Source of the DNA: Psammoneis japonica
Lineage: Eukaryota
Length of the DNA stretch: 64,000 bases
Assembly: GCA_008632985.1 (NCBI GenBank)
Contig: QPGO01000031.1
Span: 372,001-436,000, forward strand
Reading direction: 5' to 3'
Each line of letters starts with the position of its first letter. Positions within the stretch are counted from its first letter, which is position 1. Below are positions 8,403-62,399 of the stretch, piece after piece. Under the pieces are notes generated by a model, which saw nothing but the letters and a program-made list of their open reading frames with translations, was not told the origin of the DNA and did not search any database. The position numbers and the translations under genes are program-made.

Positions 8403-9569
8403 ATGAACAATACAAGCACCGGTAGCAACGAAGCTAATTTGAAGGAGAGGGATTATGGCGACGACCACCAAGACCTGAGCAATGATAACAACATGGGGCA
8501 TTCCAGCGACCACGACGAAAAAAGCGACCACCCAAACTCAGCACATGACAACAACTCGACACCATTTAGCAGATGCATGAAGGCAGCCAATTCACGCATG
8601 AAAAACGCCAGCACCCTTGAAAGCATGGCACATGACATGAGACGATTCCCACGGTCTTACTTTGACATCCTCGAACAAGCAGAGAAGGAAGCCAAATCCT
8701 CCGTCCAGCTACGTGATGCTGCTCGCACTCTTGATCGATCGGCAATTGAGGAACAACGCAAAGACAACAACGAATTTATGATTCAAGACTTGAGACTGCG
8801 GATACAAGGACAGGCTTTTGAATGCATAGATAACCCAAGATCAAAAGCCGAACCGACAAAAGAGGAAATCAAGGCTCTTCGGCTACTGATTGACAAGATC
8901 CTTTCGAACGAAGCAGTGAGTGTGAAGAAAATTCTGACGAGACTGGTGGAAAGTTTCGAAAAGGAAATCAAAAGGGAACGGGTACGAGAGATATCCGAAA
9001 ATGAGGTAGATGACTTGAAAGCGGAAAACGGAGCTTGCAGTGACAATGACGAAAAGAGCGACAAACCAAACTCAGCACAGCACGAAGAGTCGACACCGTT
9101 TAGCAGATGCATAAAGGCAGCCAATTCACGCCTAAACAACGCAAGCACCCTTGAAAGCATGGCACAACACATGAGACAATTCCCACGGTCTTACTTTGAC
9201 ATCCTGGAGCAAGCAAAAATAGAGGCTGCATGCTCTGCTCATTATTGCAGCGTCGCTCGTAATCTTGATCGATCAGCAATGGAAAAATCAGACGACAATC
9301 ATGATTTCGTCATTCAAGATTTGAGACTGTGTATACAGGGACAAGCTTTTGAATGCATGGACGACCCAAGATCTAGAGCAAAACCAACTCGAGAGGAAAT
9401 TAAGGCTCTTCACATTCTGATTGACAAGGTTCCTCCGTACGAAGCGGTGAGTGTCAAGAACGTTCTCACGAGACTGGTGGAAAAATACGAAAAGGAAATC
9501 AAATGGGAATGGGTTAGGGAAGCCTCCGAGAAAGTTGCAGAAGATCTTGAAAAAGAAAAAGTCTCTTGA
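8403..9569 (+). CDS. Hypothetical protein built from two ~180-aa internal repeats
   Basis: STPFSRC.KAANSR..NASTLESMA..MR.FPRSYFDILEQA occurs twice; 388-aa ORF. Confidence 0.8.
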   Translation: MNNTSTGSNEANLKERDYGDDHQDLSNDNNMGHSSDHDEKSDHPNSAHDNNSTPFSRCMKAANSRMKNASTLESMAHDMRRFPRSYFDILEQAEKEAKSSVQLRDAARTLDRSAIEEQRKDNNEFMIQDLRLRIQGQAFECIDNPRSKAEPTKEEIKALRLLIDKILSNEAVSVKKILTRLVESFEKEIKRERVREISENEVDDLKAENGACSDNDEKSDKPNSAQHEESTPFSRCIKAANSRLNNASTLESMAQHMRQFPRSYFDILEQAKIEAACSAHYCSVARNLDRSAMEKSDDNHDFVIQDLRLCIQGQAFECMDDPRSRAKPTREEIKALHILIDKVPPYEAVSVKNVLTRLVEKYEKEIKWEWVREASEKVAEDLEKEKVS

Positions 9570-9966: not shown

Positions 9967-10692
9967 CTACGAACAAGTTCCTTCATCCTTCTTGTTCTCG
10001 ACCATATCCATTCCCATCTCCATTCCCATGACGAAAAGATAAAGTCCCTGTATCGGAAGAGACGACCCTTGATCCAACATTTTGAGAAGCCCACGTTTGA
10101 GTTCCACACGCCGAATGACAATGTGTTCGCCATCATCCGGTCGTGCTTTGGGATTTATGTTGTAAGGATTGTCTAAATCAACCTCCACAACCACAATAAC
10201 TGTAGTCTCGTCTGTCAAGCCTGGACTCATGCATGTGGGAGCCGACACTTGTGGCACGACGGTGCATTTCTCTCCAACAAATCCAGTTTCCTCTCGCAAT
10301 TCACGTAGTGCGGCATCCTCCATGCTTTCGCCATCATCAATCAGTCCGGCTGGAAATTCCACAGTGACTTTGTCGACAGGCGGACGGTACTGCTCCACTA
10401 GAATGGTTTCCACAGTCCCACTTGACTTTTTCTTGAGCAAGGGAACAATTACCACAGCGTCGACACTTGAGACTGACTTTTTGGTGGTGCGAGTTGCCAC
10501 ATCCCACTGGCGAGCAACTCCTTCTTGATCCGTGTAATCCAGCGTTTCGAGCCTGAGCCATTTCGTCGAACCAACCGTGCTGCGCTTGTCAATTCTGGGG
10601 ACAGTGTTAGTATCTTGATTGCTCATGCTAAAGGAAGAAGTAACGACGAGAATAATTGGCAACAGCAGCAGCACCGGTGCCATTGTGGGCAT
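9967..10692 (-). CDS. Nudix hydrolase, ADP-ribose pyrophosphatase (NUDT5-like), with signal peptide
   Basis: EQYRPPV..VEFPAG, Nudix box GLIDDGESMEDAALRELREETG, MSPGLTDET. Confidence 0.92.
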   Translation of the reverse strand: MPTMAPVLLLLPIILVVTSSFSMSNQDTNTVPRIDKRSTVGSTKWLRLETLDYTDQEGVARQWDVATRTTKKSVSSVDAVVIVPLLKKKSSGTVETILVEQYRPPVDKVTVEFPAGLIDDGESMEDAALRELREETGFVGEKCTVVPQVSAPTCMSPGLTDETTVIVVVEVDLDNPYNINPKARPDDGEHIVIRRVELKRGLLKMLDQGSSLPIQGLYLFVMGMEMGMDMVENKKDEGTCS

Positions 10693-11269
10693 AGGCGGAA
10701 TGAAGAGCGCTCTCGCTGAAAAAGATGCTCCGATCAGGTTATGAGATCAACGACTCGACTGTCCGTCCTTCCAACTCTTTGGCAGGCAGTTCCCACTTAG
10801 TTGCGCCTTCTTCTCTCTCAACTCTAGCTCTCGTGAGTGCGCTTGCCTTGGAGACTCACAGAGCGATTTTGAGTTTGCTGTGACACTTGAACACACCTGC
10901 AGCATGCTGTCCCCGACAAAAATTGCAAACACCCTCTCCTGCCTCCTGCGGCACACGCGCCAGTGACAGAGCTCTCCCACACGCCGCGCCCACCACACAG
11001 CACACGCCAGCCAGGCATGTGGTGGCAGCAGTGTGAAAGACACAGAGCAGTGCCACTGTGGGGAAGAGAGTGTTTTCAGATGGGAAAATTCCTTTCAAAT
11101 GAGAGATTTTGAGAGGTGGTCAATCAAGGACATCTGCACTTTTGAGGCAAAAGTGTCGCCATTTTTTCATCATTGTTGGGGGGCTGGCTTCGCTCGCACA
11201 GTGGAGCTCAGGGTCATTTGATGAAAAAATGATGTGACAGTGAGTGCAGGTGGGCTGGCCCTCTCAGTG

Positions 11270-13650
11270 TGAAACAACAAACTCAAAATGGGGCAGTGCC
11301 ACAGCTTTGCAAAGATTGGCTTGTGTCAAGAACACCCCTCCATGGGGACCAAGACAGATTCAAGAAGCCTGCTCTTTTGGCAGATGTGCTGGTCAATGAA
11401 GGGGGGGGGGGGGGAACATTTCATGGCAAAGAAAGCAAGCCTTTAAAAGCAACAGAGTCAGGGGCAAATGAAGAGAAAGCTCACCAGGGTGGGCATCAAA
11501 GAAGTGTGTTTTGGGAGCTCTTTCCAACAATTTGCTCCTTCTCAGATGCACTGCATGGGAGAGCTGCAACTTCAAACTGCTCAGTGCAATGGCTCTCACC
11601 ACACAAAAAGGTTGGCCCTTCAAACTGCTGTGCCACCCTGTTGGTCTGTGGCAGCAGCATTGGAGAGCAACTAAAAAAAGTTAAAGCCCACAACTTCGCC
11701 CCACAACAAACCAGGAGAATCTCCTGTCTCTCCTTCCAATGCACTCAGCAGAACAAAGTTGTCAACATGTGTGTCAAGGAGGGCTCAGCAGTGCAAAAGC
11801 AGTGAGCAGCTGTCTTGCCAAACACAATGTTCCAACTGGAGACTGTCCCAACCCCTTCAGAAGATTCTTTCCCAGTGGAAATTTGCACTTCACACCAAGG
11901 TGTTTGGCAATTCATGCCGCATTGGACTGTCTTAGCACTGGAAAGGCAGGTGCCTCTTATGGGCTGTTTCTAAGACAGCCTCCAGGCATTGCATTGGTGG
12001 GAAGAAGTGCTTTTTTGAGACTTGGCCCTTCACATGCCCCTCAATTCCTTGACTGACTTGTTGACAACCAGCACCCTCATGGCAGGCAGAGACGGCTTGG
12101 TTCTGCACCAGCAAGCTGCACTCCGATGGACAATCACAAATCAAGGCAGTCTGCCAGTTGACTGTGCGGGCCCAGTTTTTGGCAGGTCACCATCATCTTA
12201 CCGTGCAGAGGCTTGTGGCGTGTTGTCAACATTGTGTTTCCCATTTCATGTCCTGGACTGCTGCAAAACATCCAAGCATCAAGGTTTGGAAAACTGGTGT
12301 GACAACAAAGCGTTGGTCAAAGTGTTGCAGCACTTCCATTCTTCCCGGCCGTCCATCAATCCCTGTGTTCAAGACAATCAAGACAAAGACTGCTGCGCTC
12401 ATTGTTGTGGAGCAAACGTGTTGTCCTCAGACTGGGATGTGACAAATGAAATTCTTCAGACAACTGCAGAGATTCAAGAGCTGCTGGATGATTCCTCCAA
12501 CGGACAAGCCCCTCCAGTCAAATGGGTTGAAGTGCATCAGGATTGGCACACCCAACCTGCCGCACTGCCTTTGAACACCAGAGCAACAAACATCCATGCC
12601 AACAGCCTGGCTGGCCGGCATCAATCACAAATCTCCAAGAACGCCACTGAAGTCATCCCTTTTCCACATTGCCAAGCCTGCCTCTCTCTCCCTGATGGCA
12701 CAGCAATGGCCAGCTTAAAAGCCTCAGTCCGGCATGCAGCAACGGCCCCTGCTCTCAAGCAATGCATTCAGGAAAGGAGCCAATGGGACAACTCAGCAGT
12801 GTCTCAGACAGACTGGGAAGTTCACACTGCCCTCATTGAACGGTTCTCCAAGCAACATGTTTCTGCGGTCAAACTCATTCATGAGCTTCTGCCCGCCAAC
12901 AAGACAGCCCACAGATGCAATTCGGTTTGTCCTTGTCATTGCCTGTCATGCAAAAGCCCAATGGAAGACTGCAACAATGTCCTGCAGTGCCTGGAAAACA
13001 AAGACTGGCAATGCACCTTTCTCCAGGGGCTGCGCAAGCATTGTGACAAGATCAACACCATGCCTCCTCCACATGATCTGCTTCTTTCCTCCTTGGAGAC
13101 ATGGCTCCATGGTGAAATGACACATGTCACAGACATGCCCCCAATGCTCTGCTCATTGTGGCAGGTTCAGTCCAGCATTGGATGGAGACAAATCTTCAGC
13201 GACAGCTTCTCCTCACTGTGGAGCACTTTCCAAGAGACACACTTGCACAAAACCGGTTTGCTTGAGCAGTGCTGCAAAGACAATCACCCACCCCCAGTGT
13301 GGGCTGTTCAGATTGGGCCACACATGTGGAGATCATGGTGGGAACTGTGGGAACGATGTGGCAAACATGTGCATGGACACGATGCAGATTCTTGGAAATC
13401 TTCACAATGACAACAAGCAGAGGCTGAACTCACAGCCATTTGCAACAAGAAACAAGACTGTCTTGCAAAGGACAGAGCAGATCTCATGGATTCATTGGAG
13501 GATCACATGCCACACTGCACCTCACAGACTGTGAATTGGGTTGCAACGATCAAGCCCCGCCTCAAAGCCAGCATCAGCAAAGAAGAAAGAAGCAAGGCAT
13601 CTTGCCCTTCCTTGTGGCACACATTCCATTGACAGCCATTTCGGAAGGGG
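11270..13650 (+). mobile_element. Degenerate non-LTR retrotransposon 3' part (RNase H plus C-terminal Cys/His finger)
   Basis: GRDGLV (~SDGS), SSYRAEACGVLS, WCDNKALV, WVEVHQD (~VKGHQD), NIHANSLA, CLSC..EDCNNVLQC, IGWRQIF, WELWERCG. Confidence 0.8.
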
Positions 13651-14199
13651 ACATCATCGTCAGGTGACGTCCCGCCCAGCCAGTCTTTGTTCCTCTTCTG
13701 CCACACAAGCTCAGTGCGCTGGAAGTGTGGGTCAGCTGGCGCCAGCACAGCTGGCAAAGGAGCAACAGCACTTAAAAATTAGATCTGTTTTTTTGTCTTG
13801 CCAAAGATCTCTTCACAGTCAGAAAGCTTTCTGAGTGGCATCTGCAGCACAGGCCTGTTCCAGTTCCAGGTGTTGTGCACGGGTGCGCCATTCATCACTG
13901 GCCTGTTTTTTTCATTTTTGGCACAATGAACTCTTTCAAATTTGATTTTTTTCAAATTGAAGAGTGAGTGTGCACAAAACTTCTAATTTTATCTCGTGTG
14001 CACTCAATTTTCAATTTTTGAAATGATTGAAATTGAAGAAGCTCAGTGTGCCAAATGCAATTTTTGGCTGGCGTTGCACTGCTCCACATGAAAAATGCTC
14101 TCTGCCCACTCACTTTTTCATTTTTCAGAGCTCACATTTTTTGTCTGCTTCAACTCAGCTGATGTCCAAACACACCCTGTTTCTCCAGACACCAGACAG

Positions 14200-17100
14200 T
14201 TAATTTCACTGAACATGCCACAAAATGATGTCCTTTCAACCTCTCCTCCATCTCATCCACCAGCCCTCTTGGTGTGCACATTTTTCACTCAAAGCTCCAA
14301 TGCATCATGGTGAAGAAGAGGAAGCAAGCTGGAGTTGGCCGTCGACACAAGTCAGGAGAGCTGGCAACAACAAAAACAAAAAGTGTCATTGTGAACAAGG
14401 GTCTTTTTTCCAAGACAACAACCTGCCCCCTCCCAAATCAAAGCTGAAGAAACAACAACCACTCCCTCCAACATCACCTCTCACAATGCCGCCATCACTC
14501 CCTCTGTTGCTCCCACTGACCAAACTCCTGTCAACCCAAAACCCTCTGCAGAGTGCTTTGCTTTCAACCCTTCTTGGGCCTTTGATGAGACCCAGAGATC
14601 TCCAACAACCACTTTGTCATGCAGCAGTCACAAAACAAGAGATGGCATCTCATCTTGTGCTGCCACTCTGGAGCAAGAACAAGCCCGCACCTTCTTGCAT
14701 GCACTGCAGTTTCCCAACTCAGCTTGCCATGTTGAGGCTTGTGATTTGACACCACCAAAAATGAAGGCTGTTGCTTTGCAAATGACCAAACAGCTGGGCA
14801 AAATGTGGGGATGTGCCAACAACAAAAGCAACAGTGGATGCTGCACTGATGACAAAAAATGTTTTGTCCATTCAGCGGCAATTGGAGTCTCCAGTTCTCC
14901 AGAAAGACCTGTCAATGAGCCCAATTTGTCTTTCCAAGGACTGTGCCAGTGCACTTGGCCTAAACAAAAAAAACTGCTCATTGACAAATGAAGCAGGGAA
15001 AGATTGCCAGAGGAACAGCCTTGATTGAGAACAAAGGAGATGTCATGTGGTCTTCAGTGCAACCCTGTTGGTGACCTCGCAAAGTTTCCCATGAGATCTG
15101 CAAAGCCTTTGAGCATGGGTTGTCAAATCATCCTGACATGGTGCAGTCTCCCAACTCAAGAGACATGATTTTCATTAAAGATGAAGATGGAAACAAAAAA
15201 TGAGTGAAGAAATGGTCGTGCAACATGTCCATGCATGAGCTCCATGATGACATGTTGAAGCCTGTGGGTTCCGGTGGATTTGAACATGCCCATGATGCCA
15301 ATGGCAAGACAATCATCAGCGGCACAATGTTTCACTTTTTGATCCCCAAGCAATGTAAAAAAATGAAGGCCAGTCAGTGCAGCATGTGTCAATGCAGCAA
15401 TTGCATGAGTGCACACTTTCTACAAGATGCATTGAACAGGTTTCAAAGGAGGCTTTTAAAAGAGATGCAGATGAAGCAAAAGCAGCTGAAGGTTGCAAAT
15501 GATGACCCTGAAAGCTTCAAGAACTGTGACACTGCCATTGTCAAATTGGAGAATCAAATTTTCCATTGTCAAGAGGAAGTGTTTGGCTCCAATTTCAGCA
15601 ACCTTCATCCCAAAGCTCAAGATGCAGCTGCAACTGTCATTTGCAGCAATGTTGATGGTCAGGATCATCCTTGTTGGAAATGCAGCCATTTTGGGTGAAT
15701 GCAAGCATTGCCCATCCTGTCCAACTCCATTGTTGGAACAGAATGAAAGTCTCATTGCACCCCAAGTTTTGTTTCATTCAAAGGCATTTGACTGTGGGAT
15801 GTTGTTCCAAGCATGGCATGTTCATGGAAGAAAGCCATGCTTGCAAGGCACATCCAGATGGGAACAAGCATGCAAAGGTCAAACAAAAGACCTTGTTGAC
15901 AAGGTTCTGCAAACCAATCAGGGTCTTTGCAAAAAAAAAACTGCACTCTAAGTTCAAAGAAGCTGCATTGCCACCTTCCCCGCATGGCCATTCTTGGGAA
16001 AAATCATCGCATGTGGACATCTGCTGACTGCTCAGAGCATCTTCCATCTGAGCTTGACAATCAAATTTGTGGGGATCATTGTGGCAAGAGCCAAACAATG
16101 TCCATTAAAGACAGAGTTTGTGATGTGAGATTGTTGACAATGAGGCTGAGAAAACATGTCATGGGCGGGTTCTCTCTAATTCTTCCAAGCAAGATGCCAC
16201 CACAACCAATGCTCACTTGGAAAAGTTCATCACATGGCCAAAAAACCATGGGCTGTAGCATCAGGTGTGTGGCTTGTGATTTGGAATTCGCAGATGGTTG
16301 TGCCAAATGGCGCCAACATGCTTTGGTGCTGTGCTTGTTGTTGGTGTTTGCCCACAAATGCAAAGTTGTTTTTAACTGCGCTGTTGGAGCACCTGGGCAT
16401 GGCAAAGGAGGGGCTCATGGAGTTGGAGCCCACATCAAATCACTCACGCATTGAGTGAGAAATGCAGTCCATGGCTGTTGCAGGAGTCAATGATGAGGAT
16501 GGGAAAATCAGAGCTGATGGTGCTTTTGTCATTGATGACAACCATGTTGCAGCAGAGCACAGTTGCATGCAGGAATGTTTGAAATTTCTTGAAAAGAAAA
16601 AAAGTGCCAACGGCGCAGTTGGTGACAGGAAACATGCTTTGAGAGTGTCTCTTTGAAAGTTGAAAGAAAGGGTGTGTCATCTGCAAGAAGCAGATGAAGT
16701 TCTTGGCTCTTCAACTGAAGCCTCAAGTTGCAAGGATTGGCACAACTGTGCAAGAACTGCATCAGCACCATTGTGGCGTTGTTGCCATGCACCATTTTTG
16801 ATTTGAACCCTTTTTTCTCATTGGTTGGGTTGCCATGCAATGCATTCCTTGTGCTTGTCATGGCTGCCCAGATTGGCTCAAATGACCCATTTGGCAAATG
16901 ATGTCAGCCCAACCAAGCAGCCTCAACATGCAGCTGGCAACCAAACTTGCAAACACTGGCTGTGGCCCATTTTTGAATGATTCGCAAGTTTGTCAGGTGA
17001 TTCAAACAACTGAGAGTGACTCCAATGAGGTGCAGCTGGTTCACAAATCTGTGTTGGACCTTTTGACTGAAGAAATGGCAGAGAAAATTGTTGTGAAGAG

Positions 17101-17450
17101 CTGTGCTGCTGCACTGCATTCTGAATCTTGTGATGAATTCCATCTGCTGCAATGGGGTGAAGTGCCCCAAAAAGCACAAGAGGAAGATGCAGTGTGGAGC
17201 AAGTTTGGGCTGGTGAATGGGTTTGCAAATGAGTGTGTCCAAATCCTGTTCCAAGGGCCAAAGGATGGTGCTCTCCTGGAGACACCACCCATGCTGCAAG
17301 GCAATGCAGCAGTGGTTGTTCACCAGATGGCACAAAGTCATGCAGCCATCATTGCAGGTCATCACATCAAATTTGCCACCCACTTCCAAGGGAACGGTTC
17401 AATCCAAACTGGCAAAGCTTCATCTTTGAGCTCATTGGCAAGAACTTTCC
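14200..17450 (+). mobile_element. Degenerate DDE DNA-transposon transposase (Sola-like), frameshifted
   Basis: HPDMVQSP, ELHDDML..GGF..IISGTM, CSMCQCSNC, ADGCAKW, GAPGHGKGGAHG and IPCAC motifs in order across several frames. Confidence 0.65.
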
Positions 17451-17499
17451 CTCCAAGTGGCTGCTCAGCATGTTCCTTGCAAGCAACATGAGATTGTTG

Positions 17500-20400
17500 C
17501 AGGTGTTGGTCTGGTTGGCAGATGTTTGTGATCTCTCTCATTTCCAGGTCACTGTCACAATGAACAATGCCAACCAGGACAAAAACGTGCAAGTGTCTTT
17601 CTTTCCTTGCAAGATTCTCACAGGCAGGCTGCTCATCAGCAAGTTCACATCCATTGATGTCAGTGCACTTCCTTCCAGCAACATGCAAAAGCTGCACTCT
17701 GACTTCAGATCTTTCAAATCTTTCCAAACATCTGGAAACTGCATCTTGAAGTTGTTGCACTCAGCCCAATCCAGGGTCAAATGCATCACATGGTTCTTGC
17801 CCTGCAGGTTGTGACCAACAAAATCAGTGCCCTGTGCAAGACGTGAAAGTTTTCTCCTGACTCAATCTCTTGAGTCTTGCAACCTGCGGTGCATTGCAAA
17901 TTGCACCCACCTTGTGCTTGATCTTGTTCTTGCATTTTCAATTTAATGCATGGACACAGTTGGGCTTGTGTTCAGCACATTTGATGAGGCCCACACATGT
18001 GTCCACAGGACAGCCATCAAATGCATTGGCACTTTGGGAAAGCCATTCTTCACACAACATGATGCCCTCATTTGGCTCATCAAAGCAACCAAACAAGTGA
18101 GGAACAGCTCATGCAGAATCTCCAGGCCACAGTCCCCCCCCCATGAACTTGGATCAAACTAAATGAATTTTGTAGCCTGCAACACATTGCTTGAGCATCG
18201 TTGCACATTCATTTGGTCATCTCCTTTTCTTGTTGGTGCGGCACTTGTTTTTGTTCAAACAACAAAATGAAGGTGCTCTTGGTGCTCTTCATTTTGACTT
18301 TGAGCCATGAAGGCCAATGAGATCCTTGTCCGTCATTGCTCACTCCAGCATGATGATGTCTTTCATGAGCTCCACCTGGCATTTGCAACATGTGCCACCT
18401 GCCCTCCTCTCCTTCTTCTCCACCTTCATGTCTCTGAGAGTGCCAATTTTTCTGCAACCTCCAGAAAAAGACTTGCACAACTGCTCCTGTGGACACTGAC
18501 AGCCAGAAAGAATCTGACTGTCCCTGTCAGTCATTGGAACACCCACAACACATGGTTGCACCAACAACCAACAAACAATGTCAAACAATGCCTCTGATGG
18601 CATCATCTTGTGGGGGGTGCATGGGCCAAACAGGACAATGTTTTGGCAACCATGAATGCTGGCACAACATGTGAGCACTTTGCATTGTGTGTCAGTGGGA
18701 AGTTTGGCAAGGCAGGGATCATTCTCCACCGTGTCATTGTCCAATTCTTCAGGATCATTCCTGTCACAATGCTTGTCATGAAAAACACAACAGCTGTTGT
18801 TGTGCACATGCGACTTTTTCAACTTGAGACATTTGACACCTGGTGTGCAATGCTGCTTTTTGTCCACCTGCTTCCTTTCAGCATCTTCTGATTTAACAGA
18901 CCAACAATTGTGTGTTTCACACCACAGCTGTTTTGCAAATAAAATGAGATGATTCATGTCACAATGAAACCAGTGACACACAATCCCTTCAATGCCAACA
19001 TTTCAAATTTGTTCTTCACTCCCAACCTGGACTTAATTTGCCAGCAACTGTCAAACATGATCTTGCCAAAAGGCAGCCACACAATCTTTTTTGGGTCTCT
19101 GGCCCACATTTGAGGGTTGCACTTTCCTAAATTGTCAAGATGGACCTGGCAGTTGTCTTAAATTTTGCTCTTGGCAGTGCTAAAATGAGTCTCAGCAACT
19201 CGGCTTTCAATTTCAGCACAAGTGGTTCCTCCCAAAAGTCGCCATCTTTGCTCAACTCAGTGGTGCAGTTGATGTGCTCTTGGCTAGAATGAGACAATGC
19301 CACAATGATTGCAGAGCTCATCAGAGCAACCAGCTCCATTGCACACAGTGCAACAGTGTTGTCTCCATTGTTTTTCATGAGATTGTCTCACTCACAGTGC
19401 TTGTGGACATCCACCAAGTCTGAACATTGAGACATGGTGTCCGCAATGTTCTCAAAACCCAACACTCCCATGCAACAAGTCATCAGCAACTTCTGACAAT
19501 GAAGACATGCCCCCCGCTCCTTGTCACAGCAGCCAAACAAAACAGCTTGACCAGTCCAATCAAAAAGGACAAACACAATGATTTGACAGTGCAGTCATCT
19601 GTTTGTTGTTGCCCACCTCAATCATCACAACCTTGGCGTAGTTTGTCACACGCAGCGTGGACACAATCAACAAGCCCACCAACTCCTTTCTTGATGTGGT
19701 GCAACAAGACAACAGCATTGTGTTTCTTCATGGGCAGCATCCCTGATTGATTCCTGATGGCACTGCAGCCAACATCAACATGTCATTGTGCTTCTTGTCA
19801 AATGTGTTCTCTGTTTTCTCATTTGCAGTTGATTCTCACTGCAAAGTTCATGAACAAACCAAATGGCATCACAGTTGTGGAACATGCCTGGTTGTTTGGC
19901 ACTCTTGAACCCATCCACTGCACCATTCCTGTGACAAAGAGGGTGAAAGAGAGGGCTGGTCTTCTTCTTGGCTTTGCAATCTTAAGTGGCCCAAATCTGC
20001 AAGACCTTGTGGGCATGTCTGGGGATCAACAAAAGTTTGAAGAGGTTGCAGGTGCCAAGTTTTGGAGCCACCTGCCTTTGCACAACATTCATCTGTTGGT
20101 TTGACTGAAATTCTTGATGAAAGAGGACACCCTTCAACTGGCTTGCAAAATTGTTTGCTTGAGGGGCATTGCCACCGATGAAGAATTGGCCAGCCCCAGC
20201 TTTTTCTTGGTGACTGCTTTGGCCAATGTGTCCATTGTGATTGCACTGATGATTGCACACACTTCTGTTTGCAGGACAAATTCACTCCAGGGAGGGGGGG
20301 CAACATCAGCCAGTTGTTGCAAAAGTGACACAGGTGAACAGAGGCAGCCTTCAAGGCAGCTCAGTGGCAGCTGTCATCAGAAACCATTGGGGCAAACATG

Positions 20401-21932
20401 TGAGTTTGGCAGAAATTCAGAACAGGTGAATGCAAAGCAACTAAAAAAGGAGGCATGCAAAGCAACTGGCACACAAAAAGCATGTGCGCGCAGCATCTTG
20501 CATGAACCACAACACACAAAACCAATGTGCTGAATTCCAAACAAGAAAATGCAAAGAAATTGTGTCATTTGCAACAACAGTGACTGCACAGAGCCACAAC
20601 TGCATTGTGACAATGATGTGACTTTCAAATGAAAGGAATGGACAGCTCCATGCAACCACAAGGGTGAAAAGGGGGTTGCAGAGCAGTGACAGCAGTGTGT
20701 GCTGCATTGTGGCTGACATTGTGTGTGGGGTGTTTTTGTGCATGGACTGCACATGCATGCAGAAGCCTTGGCATTGATCAAAGCATTGCCAGAACAACAT
20801 CAAATGCCAACTGACACCATTCTTCCAGTGACGAAATGAGTGCCTTGGTTGTTCGAGACATGCGCTGCTCTTGTCATGAACACACACCGCATCATCAAAA
20901 CAATCAATGTTCACCAAAAGCCCATGAGTGCAAGCTCTGCCAGGTGGAGACAGAATTGTCTGGTGCTGAAACCTGTGCAGAAAATCTTGCTTGACAGATT
21001 GTGGATCACCTGAGGCTGGAACAGGCCCGCAGCATTTCCAGACCAATCAGCGCCAGCAAGCCCTGGAAGGATGCTCGTGAGATTCTTGGAAATCCCATGC
21101 GCCCTTTGTTTGCTGCCTGCAGGCTGAGCCAAGAAGATTTTCTGTTGCTGGCACCTGGTGTTTGTGAGCTCACAAGAGGTGGTGGAGGACAGCACTGATG
21201 CTGTGCACGCCCCACTTTTGTGCACATTCCATTTGCCAAGCCTTGTGCCAACCTTGGCCCTTGTTGCTCCCCAGAATGACAATTTTGTCATCCTCTAACA
21301 CAACATTCTGCTGCCATTTTGACATGAGTTGGTGTTCAACCTCACATGAGGAGCATGCTCAATGTGCCAGCACAGACTCTGTGCTGCCAGCTGGCGAGCA
21401 CTCACATTCTTTGTGACACCGTGCAAGCAATGTTTTCCAGGGAGGGGTTGCACAGATCTCTTTCTCTTTGCAATGGTTGGTGTTGGTTGGCCTCAAAAAT
21501 GAGGTCACTTGCACTGCCTTTCTGCATGTGCTCATTGACCCACACACCCCTCTCTCTGCCATTTTTTGCTGACAGGCAAGACCTCCTTGTGTTGTTTTGC
21601 ACGGTCGTGCCCGTCGCCACTTTCTGCGCTCTTCATTCAATGCCTCGCCCCTTCAAGTGCATGCTCAGGGGTCACTCCAGCTGAGACAAGCTTGTCATGT
21701 GTGGACTGAAATGCTGCCAACAACCTCTTTGGTGCATGCAGTGGCTCTGCGACACAATGCACAACTGGTGGCGCAAGGTTGCACAGCACATTGTCCTTCT
21801 TGTGGCATGTTTTGTTGAGCCAAACCGATGTGCTGTCACTCCCACTTCTGTTCCACGGACCTCAGCAAAGGGTACAGACTGTACTTTGTTGGTTTTTCCA
21901 AGGGCTTTGACCCAGAGATCGCTGATTCCCAT
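17500..21932 (-). pseudogene. Degraded large gene starting with an XPG/Exo1-like nuclease domain, probably element-borne
   Basis: N-terminus MGISDLWVKAL..EVRGTEVGV; CSSCEVEHQL..VVLEDDKIVILG at ~21358-21270 (~APYEA..QL..SEDSD); downstream extent uncertain. Confidence 0.5.
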
Positions 21933-22166
21933 TGTCGATGTTTCGAGACCGTGGCTGCAAAAAAGCGCCGCGCACGTGAATGAGTCATGCGAAATCGAGT
22001 TTTTTAGTCGTGCAGCGATGCGAGGTGCGCGATGTTTTGTTCGCTTCGGATTCATTCAAACACCAAAAACTGGAGACACAATACATTGTACGCACATTGA
22101 CCGCACAACGAATCTTCCTGGCATCATCACCAACTTGTCATTCCCCAAGAAGAAAAGAAAAGAATC

Positions 22167-23015
22167 ATGATACACCAGGTATCCCCTGAAAAACAGTCAC
22201 AAAGACGTTCCAGTGAACCTTGGATTTCAAAAGGGTGCAAGACATATCGGCGCCACCAAGTTTTCGTATCTTTGTTTGTTGTACTCTATTTGTTTCAAGC
22301 TCGGATGCAATTTCAATTCAGAACAACGCAAGACCATGCAAATTCAGTTACAAAAGACTGGTCTAAAATGAGAATTGTAATATATCTCACGACGCATCTA
22401 TCCGAACAACATTTGCTTTCCTTGGAAAAGTGTTGGCCGACCATGGTTCACAAGTCGAAAATGCTACAAAACGCAAATATATTTCTCTATGCAACTGAAA
22501 CACCAGATGATGCTGTAGTGGATGTTGCTTTCAATCAGACGAGAGGTGTATCGCGTATGAAATTGTATAAGAATCCTGGAAAACAAGAAGGAGCAATCCT
22601 TCCAGTCGTCGAGGCGATCGAAAACGTCGACGCATGGTTTGCAGCCTACGATTGGGTCGTTCGAATCAATCCGGACGTGTTGATTCTTAACGACACTGAT
22701 TTTTATCCTCTCATGAATGACCCTAATGTGGATGCTATTTTGGTGAACTGTAGGCCTGAACCACAACTCAAGATCCACACTGACTTTTTTGCCGTGAGGC
22801 CTCGTGCATTGCCCAAGGATGTTTTAGAGTACAAAGGTAAAGATGGGAGGATCAGTGCGGAACTACATTTCACAAAACAAATGCAAAAGGTTTTAGAAAG
22901 CAGGAGACATGCCTGGATGCCAGGTGTTGGTAAAGAGAAGAAAGGATGTCGAGTGTTTGGTCCCTCTGTCGTGCATAAACACCAATGGTTGAAGAAGTGC
23001 ACGAAGTTGTTTTGA
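22167..23015 (+). CDS. Type II membrane glycosyltransferase-like protein
   Basis: N-terminal TM segment, YDWVVRINPDV motif, 282-aa ORF with normal composition. Confidence 0.7.
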   Translation: MIHQVSPEKQSQRRSSEPWISKGCKTYRRHQVFVSLFVVLYLFQARMQFQFRTTQDHANSVTKDWSKMRIVIYLTTHLSEQHLLSLEKCWPTMVHKSKMLQNANIFLYATETPDDAVVDVAFNQTRGVSRMKLYKNPGKQEGAILPVVEAIENVDAWFAAYDWVVRINPDVLILNDTDFYPLMNDPNVDAILVNCRPEPQLKIHTDFFAVRPRALPKDVLEYKGKDGRISAELHFTKQMQKVLESRRHAWMPGVGKEKKGCRVFGPSVVHKHQWLKKCTKLF

Positions 23016-23153
23016 GATCTCTATCTTGAGCTTTGTCGAGGTGTAGCAGCAGTTTCCATCATTTGAGAACGTGCTGCAGCAGCCACAATGCTGATGTTTG
23101 CGCCGCGCCAGAAAAAGCAAAACCTTTTCGCTCGATTCTTTTCACTCTCCGCA

Positions 23154-24230
23154 ACAGGGCTACTCTTGCTGGGAAGGGAGGCATTATCAAATTAAGTCTT
23201 TAGTTAACTATTCTGGTGTAAAGCTACTCTCTAGAGAGTGAATCATCTAGGGCCCTACAGTACACTGTACCGTACTGACAAAAAAACCCTCTCTAGAGTA
23301 GAGAGCAAAAAATGCGGTATCTTGTAACATCTTCATCTAGAGGCGGATGCGCTCCAACAACGCGCACCAAAAACGATAAACGATAAACGATAAAATATAA
23401 ACGAAACGCAAAGAGAGACGATGACGTGAACGTCCTTCATCATCATCTTCTTCTGATAGTCCCTCTGAATAGGTCAAGCCAATGAGGGACAAACAGCAAG
23501 AAGATTCCCTGAGGGAGCTACTTGAGAAGCAATATCTTCATGCACAAGAATACTGCAACTCTCAAACTAGATACCACCAGGCGCTTGCTTCGTCGAGTGG
23601 CTCGGCACACACTTCTTCCGTGGAGAAGCGGCTTAACAGCGACTCGCTAAGACAGGCGACAATGGACATGATGGAGTGTGGAGACGCCGTTAGGTCTGAT
23701 CTCGAGGAGCTACAGGGCTACTCTTGCTGGGAAGGGATGCATCATCAAATTGAGCCTTTAGTTCACTCTTCTGGTGTAAAACTACTCTCTCTAGAGAGTA
23801 GCTAGAGCGCTGACAACTGACAAAACTTAGAGGCAGAAAATGCGGCATCTTGTAACATCTAGGCGGATGCGCTCCAACAACGCGCACCAAAACTTACAAC
23901 AAACATAACACTGAAGACGCAAAGAAGACGATGACGGGAACGGGAACGTCGTTCATCATCATCATCATCTTCTGATAGTCCCTCTGAATAGGTCAAGGCA
24001 ATGAGCGACAAACAGCAAGAAGATTCCCTGAGGCAGCTACTTGAGAAGCAATATCTTCATGCACAAGAATACTGCAACTCTCAAACTAGATACCACCAGG
24101 CGCTTGGTTCGTCGAGTGGCTCGGCACACACTTCTTCCGTGGAGAAGAGGCTTAACAGCGACTCGTTAAAACAAGCGACAATGGAAATGATGGAGTGTGG
24201 AGACACCGTTAGGTCTGATCTCGAGGAGCT
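23154..24230 (+). repeat. Tandem duplication of ~0.55 kb (23154-23711, 23712-24230) covering promoter and 5' CDS
   Basis: acagggctactcttgctgggaaggga at 23154 and 23712; near-identical coding starts at 23482 and 24001. Confidence 0.92.
23482..23805 (+). pseudogene. Truncated duplicate of 24001-24441
   Basis: Nearly identical until SDLEEL, then reads into the next repeat unit's upstream DNA. Confidence 0.75.
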
Positions 24231-25649: not shown

Positions 25650-28300
25650 GCGACCCGCGATGAATGATGGGACCGACGCTGAATTGGCATGGCCTTTCCT
25701 GAGCTGGCAGTTGCAGAAACATCAGCCATTTGTCTGGTTAATGTTCCATGCATCTAAACTTGCATTGCAAGACTCCAAACATTCAGAGTGGCAGCGGTGC
25801 TTTGCAAGTGCTTTTGTCATGTGTCCCATTTCCCGCAGCTTTTGATCGTTTGTCATCAATGCGCCAATTCTTTTTTTCCTTTTCCATTCTCATCCAACTG
25901 TTTGCTTGGTCAACAAGAGAAGGGAGAGCATTTGTCTGACTTGTGACCTGCAAGATGGTCGCCAACATGTCTCTTGCACCAGGCAGCAGATGCAGCAGCA
26001 TTGGCGAGTGCTCAAGCCGATGTTTTGGTTCGAAGCTTCACCACAGGCACTGCCGCTGTCTCTTGTGGATGAACTTTGATGCTTCCAAAGAATCAGCTTG
26101 GTCACAATGCCTTTGTCTTGTTCAAGGTGTGGCAGACGACCGTCCCCCAGGGGGTGATCCAGAGCTTTGGATGAGCCAAGCTTGACACACTCGACGTCAC
26201 ACAAAATCATGTTGTGTCCTTTTTTTGCAGCCGCATTTAATGTGTTGGTCAATCTCTTTAGAGAAGTTGTGATGGTCCAAGTGTTCCTGGCACTGGGATC
26301 CAGAGTGGCCTCTCCCAGTCCAGTGGGTGCCAGGCAGAAACTCTCAAGGCAGCAGGTGTGTGGGACAGTCGCTCTGCACAGTGCAAGCATTGGCCTTTGC
26401 AAACAATGACCACACAGGTGCAATGGGGCAAGGATTTTTCAGACAAGAGATCAGCTTGGTTGATGCTGGGTTGAAGGTCAACTGAAAGGTGTGAGCAAAA
26501 AAGGTTGGTTGCAGTTTGGCATCAAAAAAAGTCATTTTGTCGGGATGGACACCACAGCTGTCGACTGCCAACAGGCCGTCATGACAGTCATCAATTTTCA
26601 GAGCTCCTCTTTGCCCTTGCTCTGCTTGTTGAGCTGCTTGCTCACTTTTCAAGAATGTTGGCTCACTGCCTTCCTTGCGGGACACGCAAACATTTGCCAC
26701 AAAGGCCTTGGCCTGGGCAAGACAATCTTCCTCAGTCATGTCAGGAGGACCTTTCAAGCGGAGGTCCCAGTCTCTTGTTTGTTTGGTTTCCAGAGAATGA
26801 TGTTCTCCAGGAGCCATTGTGGAAAGCAATCTTCTATTTCCCAGTCCACTGCACTGGCACCAGCAGCCTTGTTTGCTGAAAATTGGAGCAGCGATGACTT
26901 TCCAGAATGGAGTGGCTGGCCAACCCGTGATTGTGCTCTTCAAGGTTCTTGCAAAAGGCATCATCCCTGGTGTGCATCTTTTGGGTGGTGAAGCTGCAAC
27001 CAGCAGCAAGGGTCAGCTTTGAGAAGTCCCAGGTGCAAACGGGTCCAGTGTCGGCAAGGTGACAGAGTGCATCGGTGCCGCACTGGCCCTTGCCAATCAG
27101 GACTCGAGATGCTGAATTTTTGCCACCCTGTGCCACTCACTTGTTGTTGGCTTTCTGGAGCTGCTGAGCATGGTTGCATGTAACTTCTTGGGAAATGTCG
27201 GAGGTTCAAAGGCGGTGATGCTAAAGAGCATCAGCAAATCAGGGTGGTTTGGCATTTCTGGCTTTGTGGAGGTGAGGCACTGCGGCAACAGAAACAGCAA
27301 AGAACGTCTTCTCCTCTTTCAATTGCATTAAAAGGGGTGCAAGTGCAACATCACTTAGCTGCTGCCCATCAAAGTCTGACAAGTCTCGTCGTTCAAACTC
27401 AAAGCTCATCTGTCACGTGTCTTTCGTTCGACGCACAACATCGAAACATGCGATGATGGGAGCAGATGCATGTTTGAGCGCTGACAAAGTGGTTTTGCTT
27501 TCCGTCACAAGTGCGAGCCGAAGCAAGGTCACGGTTGAGAACAAGCACAATCCGACATCGTCGTAAAATGCTGATTGGATCCCGAAAATTTCACACCCCG
27601 TGGCCGCCAATGCTGTCGAGTGAGTGACACATCCATGAAATTACACAAAGACTGCCACGTTTGCAAATGACGAAGCCGCAGAGACGACACCACGCTTGCA
27701 TTGAGGACAACTGCAGGTGAGCAGAAATGACTTTGGATTGTCGACTGTGCAGCAGCAGAGGTCTCGGTGATCTTTCAGCTTTGGAGCAGCACTGCCAAGA
27801 CAAGCATGGGCGACATGCATGCCAGATGTGTCGCAAAGACTTTGGTTCCAGTCAAGCTCTGGACCAGCACAAGTCGTCCACAAACACGGCAGCAAACCAA
27901 GTGGACAGCCAGCAGCAATCAAGAGTCACGACCACGAGGTGCCCTGCCCAGGAATTCAAGGACACTGGATGAGACGAAACGCGTTTCTAAAAGCGTTTTC
28001 GGACAAGCGCAAGTCGTTTGGCCGTCACTGCTGCCACAAATGCCGAAAGGAATGGGGCTCAGCTCACGCCTTTGCCCAATGCCATCAAGGATGCCAACGC
28101 TGTGAACTTAAATCATTTCCGTGTTGCCTGTGGGTCAATGCAGGGTATCGGGACTCTCGAAAAGCGGCGGTGGACGAGGAGGAAGCTCCTCATGACAGTG
28201 CACACTGTGGTGCTTGCCGGGCTGGTGTGTGTTGCCGGATGGAGGGCCACTTCTAGCATTTCGACTGAGGGTCGGGCAGCAAAAGAAATCAAAGTCATCA
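25650..28300. other. TpA-depleted block B containing degraded genes
   Basis: TA nearly absent; CpG partly retained, especially 27.3-28.3 kb. Confidence 0.85.
27727..28256 (+). pseudogene. C2H2 zinc fingers plus 3CxxC-type zinc domain, frameshifted and hypermutated
   Basis: CRLC..LEQHCQDKH, CQMCRKDFGSSQALDQH; second frame FGRHCCHKCRKEWGSAH..QGCQRC..PHDSAHCGAC. Confidence 0.7.
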
Positions 28301-28677
28301 TAAATCTCTTGCAACAGTCATCAAATGATCGGTTGTGTTCCACTTTTTCAAATTTATGAAGCCTCGTGGGTGCGGCTTCAGTGGTGCAAGAGGACTCGCC
28401 ACCTGTCTGTAAGATTTGGATTCAGACGGGGAATGGAGATGGCCTCTGAACATTGGCGTCGACTTCTGTTGGGAATTCAGCACAGGCTGTTCCCACCAAC
28501 TGGTTGCATGAGGTTCCAATCTAGTGGACGGCTGTGGAGGGATCGACGCTGTGCGCTGAATGCCGAAACAAGAAACCGAGGCTGAAATCGAGAAAGTGCC
28601 AATCACATTTCATTCACAGGCCGGAACCGTCACCAAGATGCACCTGTAGATGACAATGAGAAATCACAACTAGAACG

Positions 28678-29061
28678 TCATATTCCGTCTCCTCCAAGAT
28701 CTTCAAAGGTTTTGCTCCACCGGGCCTGTTCGCGCTTGAGATTCTCCAACACAAACTTTTCGCCTTGCTGGGCTTGATGATCCTCGTGCCAGTCTTCAAC
28801 ACGTCGGTGCCCTGATTGTGCTTGAACAGATGATGCTTCGTCATTCATGACGGTTTCTTGAGAAATGTCGTCATCATCCACTGGCATGTGATGGGGTGGA
28901 TCTCCACTTCTCATCGGCATTGACGATGCGCGCTTTCGACCATGGCATCCAAGAACAAAACTTGCAGCGCATTGATCAAGCAACAGCAAGTACAGCAGCA
29001 CCACAAATCTTCTGCAAGCTGGGGTCCTCCTATTTTCAACAGCTGATAACATCCTTCTCAT
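28678..29061 (-). CDS. Small hypothetical protein with signal peptide / plastid-type presequence
   Basis: Hydrophobic stretch then CAASFVLG; acidic C-terminus. Confidence 0.55.
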   Translation of the reverse strand: MRRMLSAVENRRTPACRRFVVLLYLLLLDQCAASFVLGCHGRKRASSMPMRSGDPPHHMPVDDDDISQETVMNDEASSVQAQSGHRRVEDWHEDHQAQQGEKFVLENLKREQARWSKTFEDLGGDGI

Positions 29062-29235
29062 CTCGTTATCATTATGTTGCGTCCATTGAGAAGCGTTTTT
29101 ATCAATGGTTAGGGGAACTCTACAGTAGCGTGAAGCGTGCGCAAAGAGAAAGAATCATCATCCAGATTCAAGATTCAAGATCTTCCAAGTTCTGCAGTCT
29201 GGAAGTCATTCGCGCGATGATGCTGCACACGACGC

Positions 29236-52830: not shown

Positions 52831-53029
52831 GTGTGTTTGCTCGACATGATCCTAAAGAAAGCGAAGCATAGAGACCATCTATCGAGATGCAGATCTGGTT
52901 CTTTGGCTCAATTTCTTTTTTTGCTTTGGAGAAAGTCGCTAGTCTGGTAAGGAGTGGGGAAGAGCTACTGCTAGCTGGGATGAGAGGTTCGAAGCGTTTT
53001 GATTATCTGGCTATGCGTCAGTTTTTGAA

Positions 53030-54340: not shown

Positions 54341-54392
54341 GTGTCCGTGTTCTACATATAGACTATTGGAGGATCTTGCGGAAGTTCTATTT

Positions 54393-55145: not shown

Positions 55146-55512
55146 GCTTTCTTTGAAATTGTGAGTGGCTGGAAAAGCACGGGTGAAAAGCCACAATGAA
55201 TTCTCTCTTTTCTTTGTAGACCGGCTTTTGCGTGGTTTGACAAACGCTGCTCAAAATCGCACTATTATAGACTATAGAATGAGGATTTCAATAAACAAAC
55301 TTTGTAGAAGTTACATTTCGTAAACCAAAACCAAACGCCAATGCGCACTTTTCCGCAGTTCGCGGCGGGTGGCGGTATCGCGACCTCGAAAGCTCGAAAG
55401 TCGTCATCGTGCGGAGTCGCGCGCGAAGGCTCGATGCGATTTTTGGCTTCATCGCGGTTCTATTCGTCCTCATTTTTGTTGAGGTATAAAAGAGAGTAGG
55501 TGCGCTCTGACC

Positions 55513-62309: not shown

Positions 62310-62399
62310 GACGACGGCAACAACACAATAGCGGTATCAACAAGACATGCAATGTGCGATGTATCGTCATACTGAAATTGTCGGTCGTCAAATTCGGAC

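Follow-up and report, generated by a model that had tools for sequence, protein, structure and literature searches.

Loss of TpA under a flanking-base rule in three blocks of diatom nuclear DNA

The window, by which we mean the whole 64-kb stretch of DNA analysed here, comes from the nuclear genome of a diatom and contains three TA-poor blocks (A, B and C), in which the loss of TpA follows a flanking-base rule that spares TTAA. The loss of TpA is independent of the loss of CpG. It is very probable that the blocks record an in-situ, context-dependent process of TpA mutation. Our explanation as a whole, to which we assign a probability of roughly 0.45, is that silenced mobile or junk DNA is rewritten in place by a region-targeted, enzymatic process, most likely adenine deamination.

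Block A (positions 10826–21872) has an observed/expected (O/E) ratio of 0.05 for TA, 1.80 for CA and 1.84 for TG, and 37 TA steps are left in its 11000–21750 core. TA at normal density ends at 10825 and resumes at 21873. One side of the block faces the 5′ end of a Nudix gene (ORF 9967–10746, minus strand), the other an ORF running from 22101 on the plus strand. The tract is therefore wider than the 11400–21300 range given in the first-pass annotation. The CpG-poor core of block A, delimited by CG positions, is narrower than the TA-poor tract (11006–21600; CG O/E 0.16). Block B (25756–28990), a TA-poor tract at single-copy depth, is CG-poor only as far as approximately 27250; this part is referred to as B1, and the remainder (27250–29000), in which CG is kept, as B2. 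Block C (62371–64000; TA O/E 0.06, CG 0.63) is a TA-poor tract cut by the end of the window, and three of its six remaining TA are TTAA. Block borders are sharp, within about 100 bp. Compared by blastn with all of the window, block A revealed no internal repeats and no similarity to blocks B or C.

In the 11400–21300 range (9901 bp), 37 TA are present versus 691 expected from base composition, and the O/E ratios are 0.05 for TA, 0.16 for CG, 1.78 for CA and 1.86 for TG. The shortfall of TA and CG in block A is matched by the gain of CA and TG, while the remaining dinucleotides are close to background and the GC content (0.47) is the same as outside the blocks. The plus strand of block A carries 1284 CA and 1155 TG, which indicates that both strands are affected.

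Being short of TAA and TAG stops, TA-poor blocks fill with long spurious ORFs; for instance, 41 ORFs of at least 100 aa occur in 12 kb of TA-poor DNA. This is of practical relevance for annotation. The only credible Pfam family in 92 stop-to-stop ORFs from the blocks was zf-C2H2_jaz, at 27721–27969, all other matches being at chance level (E above 0.005).

Sorted into strand-symmetric classes, the 37 TA of the 11400–21300 range comprise 14 TTAA, 13 CTAA/TTAG, 4 CTAC/GTAG, 3 ATAA/TTAT, 2 GTAA/TTAC and 1 CTAG, while ATAT, GTAC, ATAC/GTAT and ATAG/CTAT are at zero. YTAR steps account for 28 of the 37, compared with 332 of the 1968 TA sites (17%) outside the blocks (Fisher p = 1.4e-14); RTAY steps account for none, compared with 575 of the 1968 (p = 4e-6). 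About 130 RTAY would be expected in block A and none is left, which is near saturation. The first-pass annotation had described the residual TA as mostly YTAR, and ATAT, GTAC, ATAC and GTAT as essentially gone. Both descriptions hold, none of the latter four being left in the range, and the four example sites that it quoted were found at 11444, 12716, 13984 and 15176. Equal depletion of all NTAN tetramers is not seen, as a multinomial test on 10 classes reached the observed G of 93 in 0 of 200,000 simulations.

Survival was expressed as the density of a class in the blocks relative to its density outside, with the three blocks pooled (65 TA). TTAA survives at 0.82 (95% CI 0.50–1.26), approximately background density, CTAA/TTAG at 0.37 and CTAG at 0.12; the four mixed classes lie at 0.01–0.09 and the three RTAY classes at 0.01–0.02. 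When the eight intact LINE relatives described below serve as an alternative baseline, the ranking is unchanged (0.64, 0.35, 0.18, then at most 0.09), ancestral TA contexts being approximated in either case by host DNA or by distant LINE relatives rather than by true ancestors. The YTAR class is internally heterogeneous (p = 4e-4). As a survivor class it stands for TTAA and CTAA/TTAG but not for CTAG, which is lost almost like the other contexts and accounts for 1 of 37 TA in the range versus 106 of 1968 outside (p = 0.72).

The same annotation had proposed the A in 5′-TAY as the target. A model based on the number of TAY per site (0, 1 or 2) yields survival values of 0.39, 0.058 and 0.016 and far outperforms a single common rate (logL 75.9 versus 36.2). 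Where a site combines a TAY with a TAR and its ancestral state can be inferred, the A followed by a pyrimidine has changed in 9 of 9 cases: three conserved Tyr codons preceded by T became Cys (none His), three putative Ile ATA-R codons became ACA (none ATG), and the remaining three events are differences between block B and a second sequence version. Two Leu CTA-Y codons that became CCA run in the opposite direction. Moreover, the balance (TGY + CAR) − (CAY + TGR) is 31 in both B2 and C, against 30 ± 20 and 27 ± 20 in outside windows, although a strict TAY rule would shift it by approximately +65 in each. In block A, where TA-derived and CG-derived products are not separable by composition, either may supply the excess of TGY + CAR. 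The sparing of TTAA is also unexplained by this target, and the order TTAA >> CTAA/TTAG > CTAG within the class lacking TAY implies that TAY alone is insufficient. The direction of the flank effect, with A in TAY as a possible target, is partly supported by these events.

Deamination of 5mC has the same products, TpG and CpA, but cannot remove TpA. CpG decay with a gain of TpG and CpA, as in methylated transposons, is seen in block A (CG O/E 0.16) and B1 (0.32). In contrast, B2 and C keep most CG (0.79 and 0.63, respectively) at TA O/E values of 0.15 and 0.06. As B2 and C have lost TA but kept CG, and as the TA loss extends past the CpG-poor zone, the two losses are separable. The coupling to methylated chromatin suggested in the first-pass annotation is thus not required for the loss of TA.

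A decayed ORF of a non-LTR (LINE) retrotransposon, a 3′ fragment featuring RNase H and the C-terminal domain, lies on the plus strand of block A at 11815–13626 and is interrupted by 3 in-frame stops. A full HMMER search identified 1161 homologues (best E 3e-64), while a word-indexed protein search with the same ORF yielded 5283 candidates, none significant. All of the long homologues (23/23) match only the 11815–13626 stretch. In six homologues searched against Pfam, Exo_endo_phos scored above the cut-off, and both RVT_1 and RNase_H below it. Tyr makes up 0.2% of the fragment versus 3.0 ± 0.9% in homologues, and Cys 5.5% versus 2.2 ± 0.6%. At 12 columns of conserved Tyr, the fragment features Cys in five, His in two, Tyr in one and other residues in four; at 17 columns of conserved Arg, it features Cys or Trp in three and His or Gln in three. 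Eight intact LINE loci were retrieved in a metagenome scan with a six-sequence alignment. All eight are normal in TA (O/E 0.42–0.82) and have CG values of 0.77–1.06. A metagenome search aimed at sequences closely related to the decayed LINE gave 44 pattern matches, none of which was confirmed, and no Tyr-free sequence, indicative of another decayed copy, was present among the 150 LINE homologues listed.

The multi-copy repeat part of block A, delimited by word depth at 13795–21340, has no recognisable coding remnant and no credible Pfam family. Contig word depth ranges from 220 to 1008 in this part versus about 61 in the flanks, and 12 loose ends mark a repeat boundary at 13794. It is matched by 770 contigs, many of them 85–95% alike, in a depth comparison that reaches only copies diverged by at most 15%. 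Block A is therefore a transposon cluster composed of a decayed LINE 3′ fragment and multi-copy repeats. Multi-copy depth extends from about 13.3 to 21.3 kb; single-copy depth prevails in block B and at the left end of block A (about 1 kb; 10.8–12.0 kb). B2 carries, on the plus strand, one copy from a small family of zinc fingers that combine C2H2-jaz with a 3CxxC ribbon (27721–28253; zf-C2H2_jaz E 3e-6), for which nine homologues (42–52% identity) were found. The two halves of this copy are in different reading frames, owing to a frameshift or to the presence of a small intron.

Copies and versions of the same sequence differ at the affected steps. A diverged repeat copy features TG where the window has CA at 18006/7, 18011/12 and 18018/19; such discordance at the same sites argues for a change made in place, independently in each copy. 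One further difference, TA versus CA, occurs at 14961. A second version of block B differs from the window at 37 of 1022 bases, compared with 0 of 3386 in the neighbouring genes, and four of the five differences listed are TA in the second version and TG or CA in the window. The excess of differences inside block B may suggest that the editing process proposed below is still active. Taken together, the replacement of Tyr by Cys or His in the LINE, the normal TA content of its relatives, the CA-versus-TG discordance between copies and the second version that keeps TA indicate that the footprint has a mutational origin.

We propose that the blocks consist of mobile elements or junk DNA, silenced within a diatom chromosome, on which a region-targeted process would turn TpA into CpA or TpG through transitions from A:T to G:C at one or the other base pair of the step. 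Its rate would be set by the flanks: fastest at R-TA-Y, intermediate with one "wrong" flank, slower at CTAG and at CTAA/TTAG, and near zero at TTAA, with extra protection from 5′ pyrimidine runs and 3′ purine runs. Ordinary CpG decay of the 5mC type would proceed alongside in some blocks. The modification would be enzymatic, adenine in T-A-(Y) being converted to hypoxanthine, which the next round of replication reads as G. We infer both the targeting by chromatin state and the chemistry of the TA-specific step, and we favour adenine deamination for the latter only tentatively. A-to-G change with T 5′ of the target is a trait of TadA/ADAT-type enzymes, and the footprint is restricted to TA, with no depletion of AA, CA or GA, but a thymine-directed process would leave an identical one. 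A pyrimidine 3′ of the target (TAC-like) is a further trait of these enzymes, on which the TAY events and product balances given above are divided. A DNA adenine deaminase is a candidate; a scan of 33 ORFs in the window found no deaminase gene. In A34-edited tRNAs, the anticodon loop has the sequence Y32-U33-A34, with R next in most cases. As this Y-U-A-R corresponds to the class protected here, an unmodified ADAT2/3-type specificity is not favoured.

Alternatively, thymine may be the base attacked. In repeat chromatin, a TET/JBP-type dioxygenase would oxidise the T of 5′-R-T-A, and the resulting 5hmU or 5fU would give way to C because it mispairs with G or is repaired incorrectly. This presupposes that 5hmU and 5fU yield mainly T-to-C changes. 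"T in RTA" is "A in TAY" on the other strand, one and the same base pair, so that sequence cannot tell which base is attacked and all sequence evidence fits both equally. The dinoflagellate literature describes a TET/JBP homologue that makes 5hmU, enriched in repeats and silencing transposons (PMC11572971), and a mutant TET2 is reported to turn T into hmU and fU in cells, with no mutation spectrum for T oxidation given in the text (PMC11804724). According to older work on dinoflagellate DNA cited in the former source, the T of TA and TC was the preferred site of replacement (PMC11572971). TC, however, is not depleted in block A (O/E 1.01), and 5hmU in diatoms is not documented in the literature searched. 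We consider thymine oxidation unlikely.

There might also be no dedicated editor, error-prone repair being the second option offered in the first-pass annotation, and heterochromatic DNA might be subject to biased repair or error-prone synthesis, either through WA-to-WG errors of polymerase eta or through a T:G glycosylase that always fixes mismatches towards G:C at TpA. T:G repair is biased by the flanking base, enterobacteria lose CTAG via very-short-patch repair, and the CpG decay of block A suggests methylated chromatin, all of which speak for this possibility. Nevertheless, the WA motif of polymerase eta, an enzyme raised in the first-pass annotation, is not matched, as AA is not depleted (O/E 1.26 in block A versus 1.14 outside). 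In addition, TA disappeared from B2 and C with CG left in place, and the near-saturation of RTAY and the sharp borders need a rate far above that of misincorporation. The rate reported for Bigelowiella natans is about 1000-fold over background (10.64898/2026.01.13.699255). Repair or synthesis bias therefore appears improbable.

ADAR-like A-to-I editing might have acted on the transcripts of retrotransposons, with reverse transcription fixing the changes ahead of insertion. This would suit the LINE that makes up part of block A, and ADAR is described as preferring U 5′ of the edited A (10.64898/2026.01.13.699255). Yet the two strands are changed about equally (see the CA and TG counts above), and in the sense strand of the LINE, A-to-G changes (five Tyr to Cys) occur next to T-to-C changes (two Tyr to His and three Leu to Pro). 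DNA other than the LINE has changed as well, both in its flanks and in the zinc-finger copy, which has single-copy depth, and copies and versions differ in situ, which makes RNA editing very improbable. A native or selected composition, with foreign DNA having avoided TA and CG from the outset or TA having been selected against, could account for the sharp compositional borders but is already contradicted by the destroyed Tyr and Arg residues and in-frame stops of the LINE, the normal TA and CG of all eight intact relatives, the discordance between copies and, as to selection, the lack of a function in the blocks upon which it could act.

Fungal RIP changes CpA to TpA, makes DNA AT-rich and acts on duplicated sequence. 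The blocks resemble RIP in that transition hypermutation is confined to repeats, has sharp borders and a dinucleotide context, and destroys transposon ORFs. In contrast, the polarity is opposite, with TA depleted, CA enriched and GC content as outside. As to duplication, the picture is mixed: 13.3–21.3 kb is multi-copy, but parts at single-copy depth (10.8–12.0 kb and block B) are also hit, in a comparison that reaches only copies diverged by at most 15%. With a likelihood somewhat short of even, the process is a chromatin-targeted TpA base editor of diatoms that prefers R-TA-Y and spares TTAA, a defence opposite to RIP that is shared with Rhizaria and possibly ancestral to SAR.

The literature searched contains a single report of TpA hypermutation, a 2026 preprint on one chlorarachniophyte, and none for diatoms. 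In mutation-accumulation lines of B. natans, the preprint describes de novo mutations that are almost only TpA to CpA or TpG and fall in integrated viral DNA (Mettrop et al., 10.64898/2026.01.13.699255). TpA-poor clusters rich in CpA and TpG are enriched in reverse-transcriptase and DDE domains in that genome, and the authors propose an adenine deaminase, the preprint text showing no enzyme (10.64898/2026.01.13.699255). In both organisms, TpA alone is hit and becomes CpA or TpG on either strand. Both feature discrete regions of foreign or mobile origin, which here is evident for the LINE and repeats of block A and putative for the left end of block A and for blocks B and C. The hosts differ, a diatom (stramenopile) here and a chlorarachniophyte there, as do the targets, a LINE fragment and repeats here and giant-virus and virophage DNA there. 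TA O/E is 0.05 here, near saturation, compared with a Rho of 0.45 there; CpG decay partly accompanies the process here; and the rate is inferred from the footprint here but was measured there. A flank rule sparing TTAA is visible here, while none is given in the preprint text (10.64898/2026.01.13.699255).

With a saturated footprint now seen in a diatom, TpA hypermutation extends over a wider phylogenetic range. A natural A:T to G:C activity on double-stranded chromosomal DNA at a fixed dinucleotide would constitute a new class of genome defence, and an enzyme behind it that deaminates adenine or oxidises thymine in DNA would be of direct interest for base editing. The flank rule (R-TA-Y fastest, TTAA spared) is a specificity that any candidate enzyme must match in vitro. 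The blocks also resemble the 5hmU marking described in dinoflagellates, likewise SAR-group algae, in that the process is directed to repeats and a base in the TpA step would be modified (PMC11572971). In contrast, the dinoflagellate source describes a modification and reports no mutation footprint, and the TC step also preferred there is untouched here (PMC11572971).

A dinucleotide scan in 1-kb bins revealed three tracts in which TA is almost gone and CA and TG are nearly twofold. Block A is TA-poor from 10826 to 21872, and its CG-poor core is narrower, starting at 11006 and ending at about 21600. The limits of block B are 25756 and about 28990, with CG scarce only as far as about 27250; block C starts at 62371, continues to the edge of the window and retains most CG. 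Within block A's 10,750-bp core, observed/expected (O/E) ratios are 0.05 for TA (37 sites), 0.16 for CG, 1.80 for CA and 1.84 for TG, versus 0.58, 1.00, 1.18 and 1.19 outside the blocks. AA is at 1.26, other dinucleotides are near background, and GC content (0.47) is the same as outside. At the start of every block, a minus-strand host ORF has its 5' end 35-265 bp away.

The window is diatom nuclear DNA. For the minus-strand Nudix gene at 9967-10746, 2393 relatives were found, with top identities of 61-68%; among the best 120, those bearing organism names come from diatoms, including Amphora, Attheya and Corethron. Remaining host-type ORFs include a mitochondrial carrier, a formyltransferase, V-ATPase subunit c, a release factor and a cyclin, among others; an ORF scan of the window found no deaminase. 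An inverted repeat pair (29236-30730 and 53027-55362; 821 nt at 94%, with further, shorter arms at 84-100%) flanks about 22-24 kb of host genes, and each arm has an RmuC-domain ORF (28851-30131, plus strand; 54396-55250, minus strand). DNA of normal composition also holds three copies of a 111-bp tandem repeat (36530-36862) and two direct-repeat sets with a spacing of about 520-560 bp (8501-9568 and 23151-24230).

Between 11400 and 21300, 37 TA sites survive versus 691 expected from base composition. These comprise TTAA (14), CTAA/TTAG (13), CTAC/GTAG (4), ATAA/TTAT (3), GTAA/TTAC (2) and CTAG (1); ATAT, GTAC, ATAC/GTAT and ATAG/CTAT have zero left. The first-pass annotation had described residual TA as mostly YTAR, with ATAT, GTAC, ATAC and GTAT essentially gone, and both observations hold: YTAR accounts for 28/37 sites, versus 332 of the 1968 TA sites outside (p=1.4e-14), and RTAY for 0/37 versus 575/1968. 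Depletion is not equal across NTAN tetramers, as the class heterogeneity observed was attained in 0 of 200,000 multinomial simulations. TTAA and CTAA/TTAG are survivor classes as claimed; CTAG, also named as one, is not.

When survival is expressed as density relative to outside, with the three blocks pooled (65 TA), TTAA stands at 0.82 (CI 0.50-1.26), CTAA/TTAG at 0.37, CTAG at 0.12, the mixed classes (YTAY/RTAR) at 0.01-0.09 and RTAY classes at 0.01-0.02. A baseline of eight intact LINE relatives leaves the ranking unchanged (0.64, 0.35, 0.18, then at most 0.09). Block C shows the same pattern (TTAA 3/6, p=0.003); in block B, which is less saturated, it is weak (p=0.08). A TAY-count model accounts for most class heterogeneity in survival. 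Survival also varies within the YTAR class (p=4e-4), and by AIC the preferred model is one with five classes. Flank context seems to extend beyond NTAN, on small counts: survival is 1.3 for TTTAA/TTAAA, 0.81 for TCTAA versus 0.19-0.27 for other NCTAA, and 0.56 for CTAAA versus 0.09-0.41 for other CTAAN, and ATTAAT is seen 0 times versus 7.2 expected (strand-summed). The scope of this flank rule is a single window with 65 surviving TA, and ancestral states are represented by proxies.

Coding evidence that TA was lost by mutation starts from an open frame of 463 codons at 12019-13407. A word-index protein search with this frame found no match; an exhaustive HMMER search retrieved 1161 relatives (best E 3e-64, 35% identity), the alignments covering the C-terminal third of proteins that are 1200-2000 residues long. 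Pfam scans of six relatives detected Exo_endo_phos in one, over the curated cut-off, and RVT_1 and RNase_H in one each, both under it; this predicted architecture indicates a LINE of the APE type. Each of the 23 long homologues matches solely 11815-13626, in a single frame interrupted by three stops. Because homology is C-terminal only and the frame carries these stops, we regard it as a decayed, 5'-truncated LINE.

At 12 Tyr-consensus columns, the window has Cys at 5, His at 2, Tyr at 1 and other residues at 4; at 17 Arg columns, it has Cys/Trp at 3, His/Gln at 3, Arg at 5 and others at 6; three Leu columns read CCA (Pro). Tyr makes up 0.2% of the fragment versus 3.0+-0.9% in homologues, Cys 5.5% versus 2.2+-0.6%, and Arg 3.2% versus 6.9+-1.4%. 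Related LINE loci from metagenomes (8/8) have TA O/E of 0.42-0.82 and CG of 0.77-1.06; judged by these loci, the family is not inherently TA-poor. A native TA-poor composition is ruled out by the LINE coding evidence.

Contig depth between 13795 and about 21340 is 220-1008, versus about 61 in the flanks, in the single sequencing run covering the region. This raised depth, a repeat boundary at 13794 and 770 matching contigs, many merely 85-95% alike, identify the segment as multi-copy repeat DNA. Pfam scans of its ORFs found no recognisable coding remnant. The 10500-22500 interval contains 41 stop-to-stop ORFs of at least 100 aa on both strands, nearly all of them spurious, since TAA and TAG stops have been lost; they are a pitfall for gene callers. 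Block A also includes a run of about 16 G (11400-11416), and other repeat copies have a similar G-run as a loose-end consensus at 16974. At 18006/7, 18011/12 and 18018/19, the window reads CA and a diverged repeat copy TG, the outcome predicted if TA or CG had decayed independently in two copies. The surviving TA at 14961 (CTAA) is CA in the run's contig.

A second version of 28031-29054, from another run of the same sample, differs from the window at 37/1022 bases, compared with 0/3386 in neighbouring genes. Among the 5 differences listed of the 37, four are TA there and TG or CA in the window; at 28598, both letters occur in the deep DNA run, each at about half depth. We read this version as a putative less-decayed second allele, a polarity that we infer; a paralogue or another strain are the alternatives. 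The locally raised divergence lies inside the TA-poor block.

Sequence alone does not reveal which base is attacked, as "A in TAY" on one strand is "T in RTA" on the other, a single base pair described twice. Direction was examined at YTAY/RTAR sites, which contain one TAY and one TAR, by scoring which pair was altered. T-preceded Tyr codons in the LINE gave Cys 3, His 0 and retained 1; hydrophobic columns, whose ancestry is least certain, gave three ACA codons with a purine next (putative ATA-R) and no ATG-R; and in the second version, the A before the pyrimidine was altered at all three mixed-site differences (28646, 28667 and 29015). The informative events thus fit TAY in 9/9 cases (two-sided binomial 0.004), in line with the first-pass reading that the target appears to be A in TAY. 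Against it, two Leu codons changed from CTA-Y to CCA, the opposite direction, for which matching silent products are uncountable, and an ambiguous Phe/Tyr column in B2, the part of block B past about 27250, reads CAC after T. The product balance, (TGY+CAR)-(CAY+TGR), is 31 in both B2 and C, versus 30+-20 and 27+-20 in same-size outside windows, whereas a strict TAY rule would predict each to be shifted by about +65; this test presumes an ancestral composition like background. The balance is shifted solely where CG was lost too (83 in B1, 37-110 in block A chunks). We conclude that a TAY bias, which is likely present, is not exclusive, and that strong separate protection of T-TA-A is required. 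B2 also holds a zinc-finger copy (27721-28253; C2H2-jaz plus 3CxxC ribbon) with its halves in different frames, from a small, widespread, unnamed family (9 homologues at 42-52% identity).

CpG decay and TA loss occur together in blocks A and B1. In B2 and C, TA O/E is 0.15 and 0.06, with CG at 0.79 and 0.63. The TA-poor tract of block A extends past its CpG-poor core on both sides, left (10826-11005, about 180 bp) and right (21600-21872, about 270 bp), and no 1-kb bin in the window has CG O/E <0.5 with TA >0.1. The TA process is therefore the more general one, and CpG decay is unnecessary for it. The ratio of TGY+CAR to CAY+TGR is 1.46 in block A (11000-21750), 1.76 in B1 (25750-27250) and 1.21 outside; this skew may stem from a flank preference in CpG decay and not in TA loss.

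The process would convert A:T to G:C at TpA, on both strands and in situ, within sharply bounded regions and to near saturation. Polymerase eta, suggested earlier, does not fit, given undepleted AA. RNA editing before retrotransposition is contradicted by strand symmetry, non-LINE targets and discordant copies. Enzymatic base modification of DNA would remain, either as adenine deamination, as proposed for Bigelowiella natans, or as TET/JBP-type thymine oxidation, a mark of repeats in dinoflagellates with a preference for TA and TC (PMC11572971). We tentatively favour deamination, since TC is untouched and a clean transition results. The loops of A34-edited tRNAs read Y32-U33-A34, with a mostly purine next base; this is the protected class, so plain ADAT2/3 specificity is not seen.

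Searches of open-access papers and bioRxiv yielded no report of TpA-restricted hypermutation beyond a 2026 preprint on B. natans, and none from diatoms. In B. natans, de novo TpA to CpA/TpG mutation is reported in integrated giant-virus and virophage DNA, with a rate of roughly 6e-7 per site and generation, reverse-transcriptase domains are enriched in TpA-poor clusters, and an ADAT2-like candidate is named; the main text of the preprint does not mention flanking context, diatoms or CpG (Mettrop et al., 10.64898/2026.01.13.699255). We file the diatom finding under the same kind of TpA hypermutation, now in a second major lineage, to which the present blocks add, relative to that main text, a flank rule and CpG decay that partly overlaps the TA loss.
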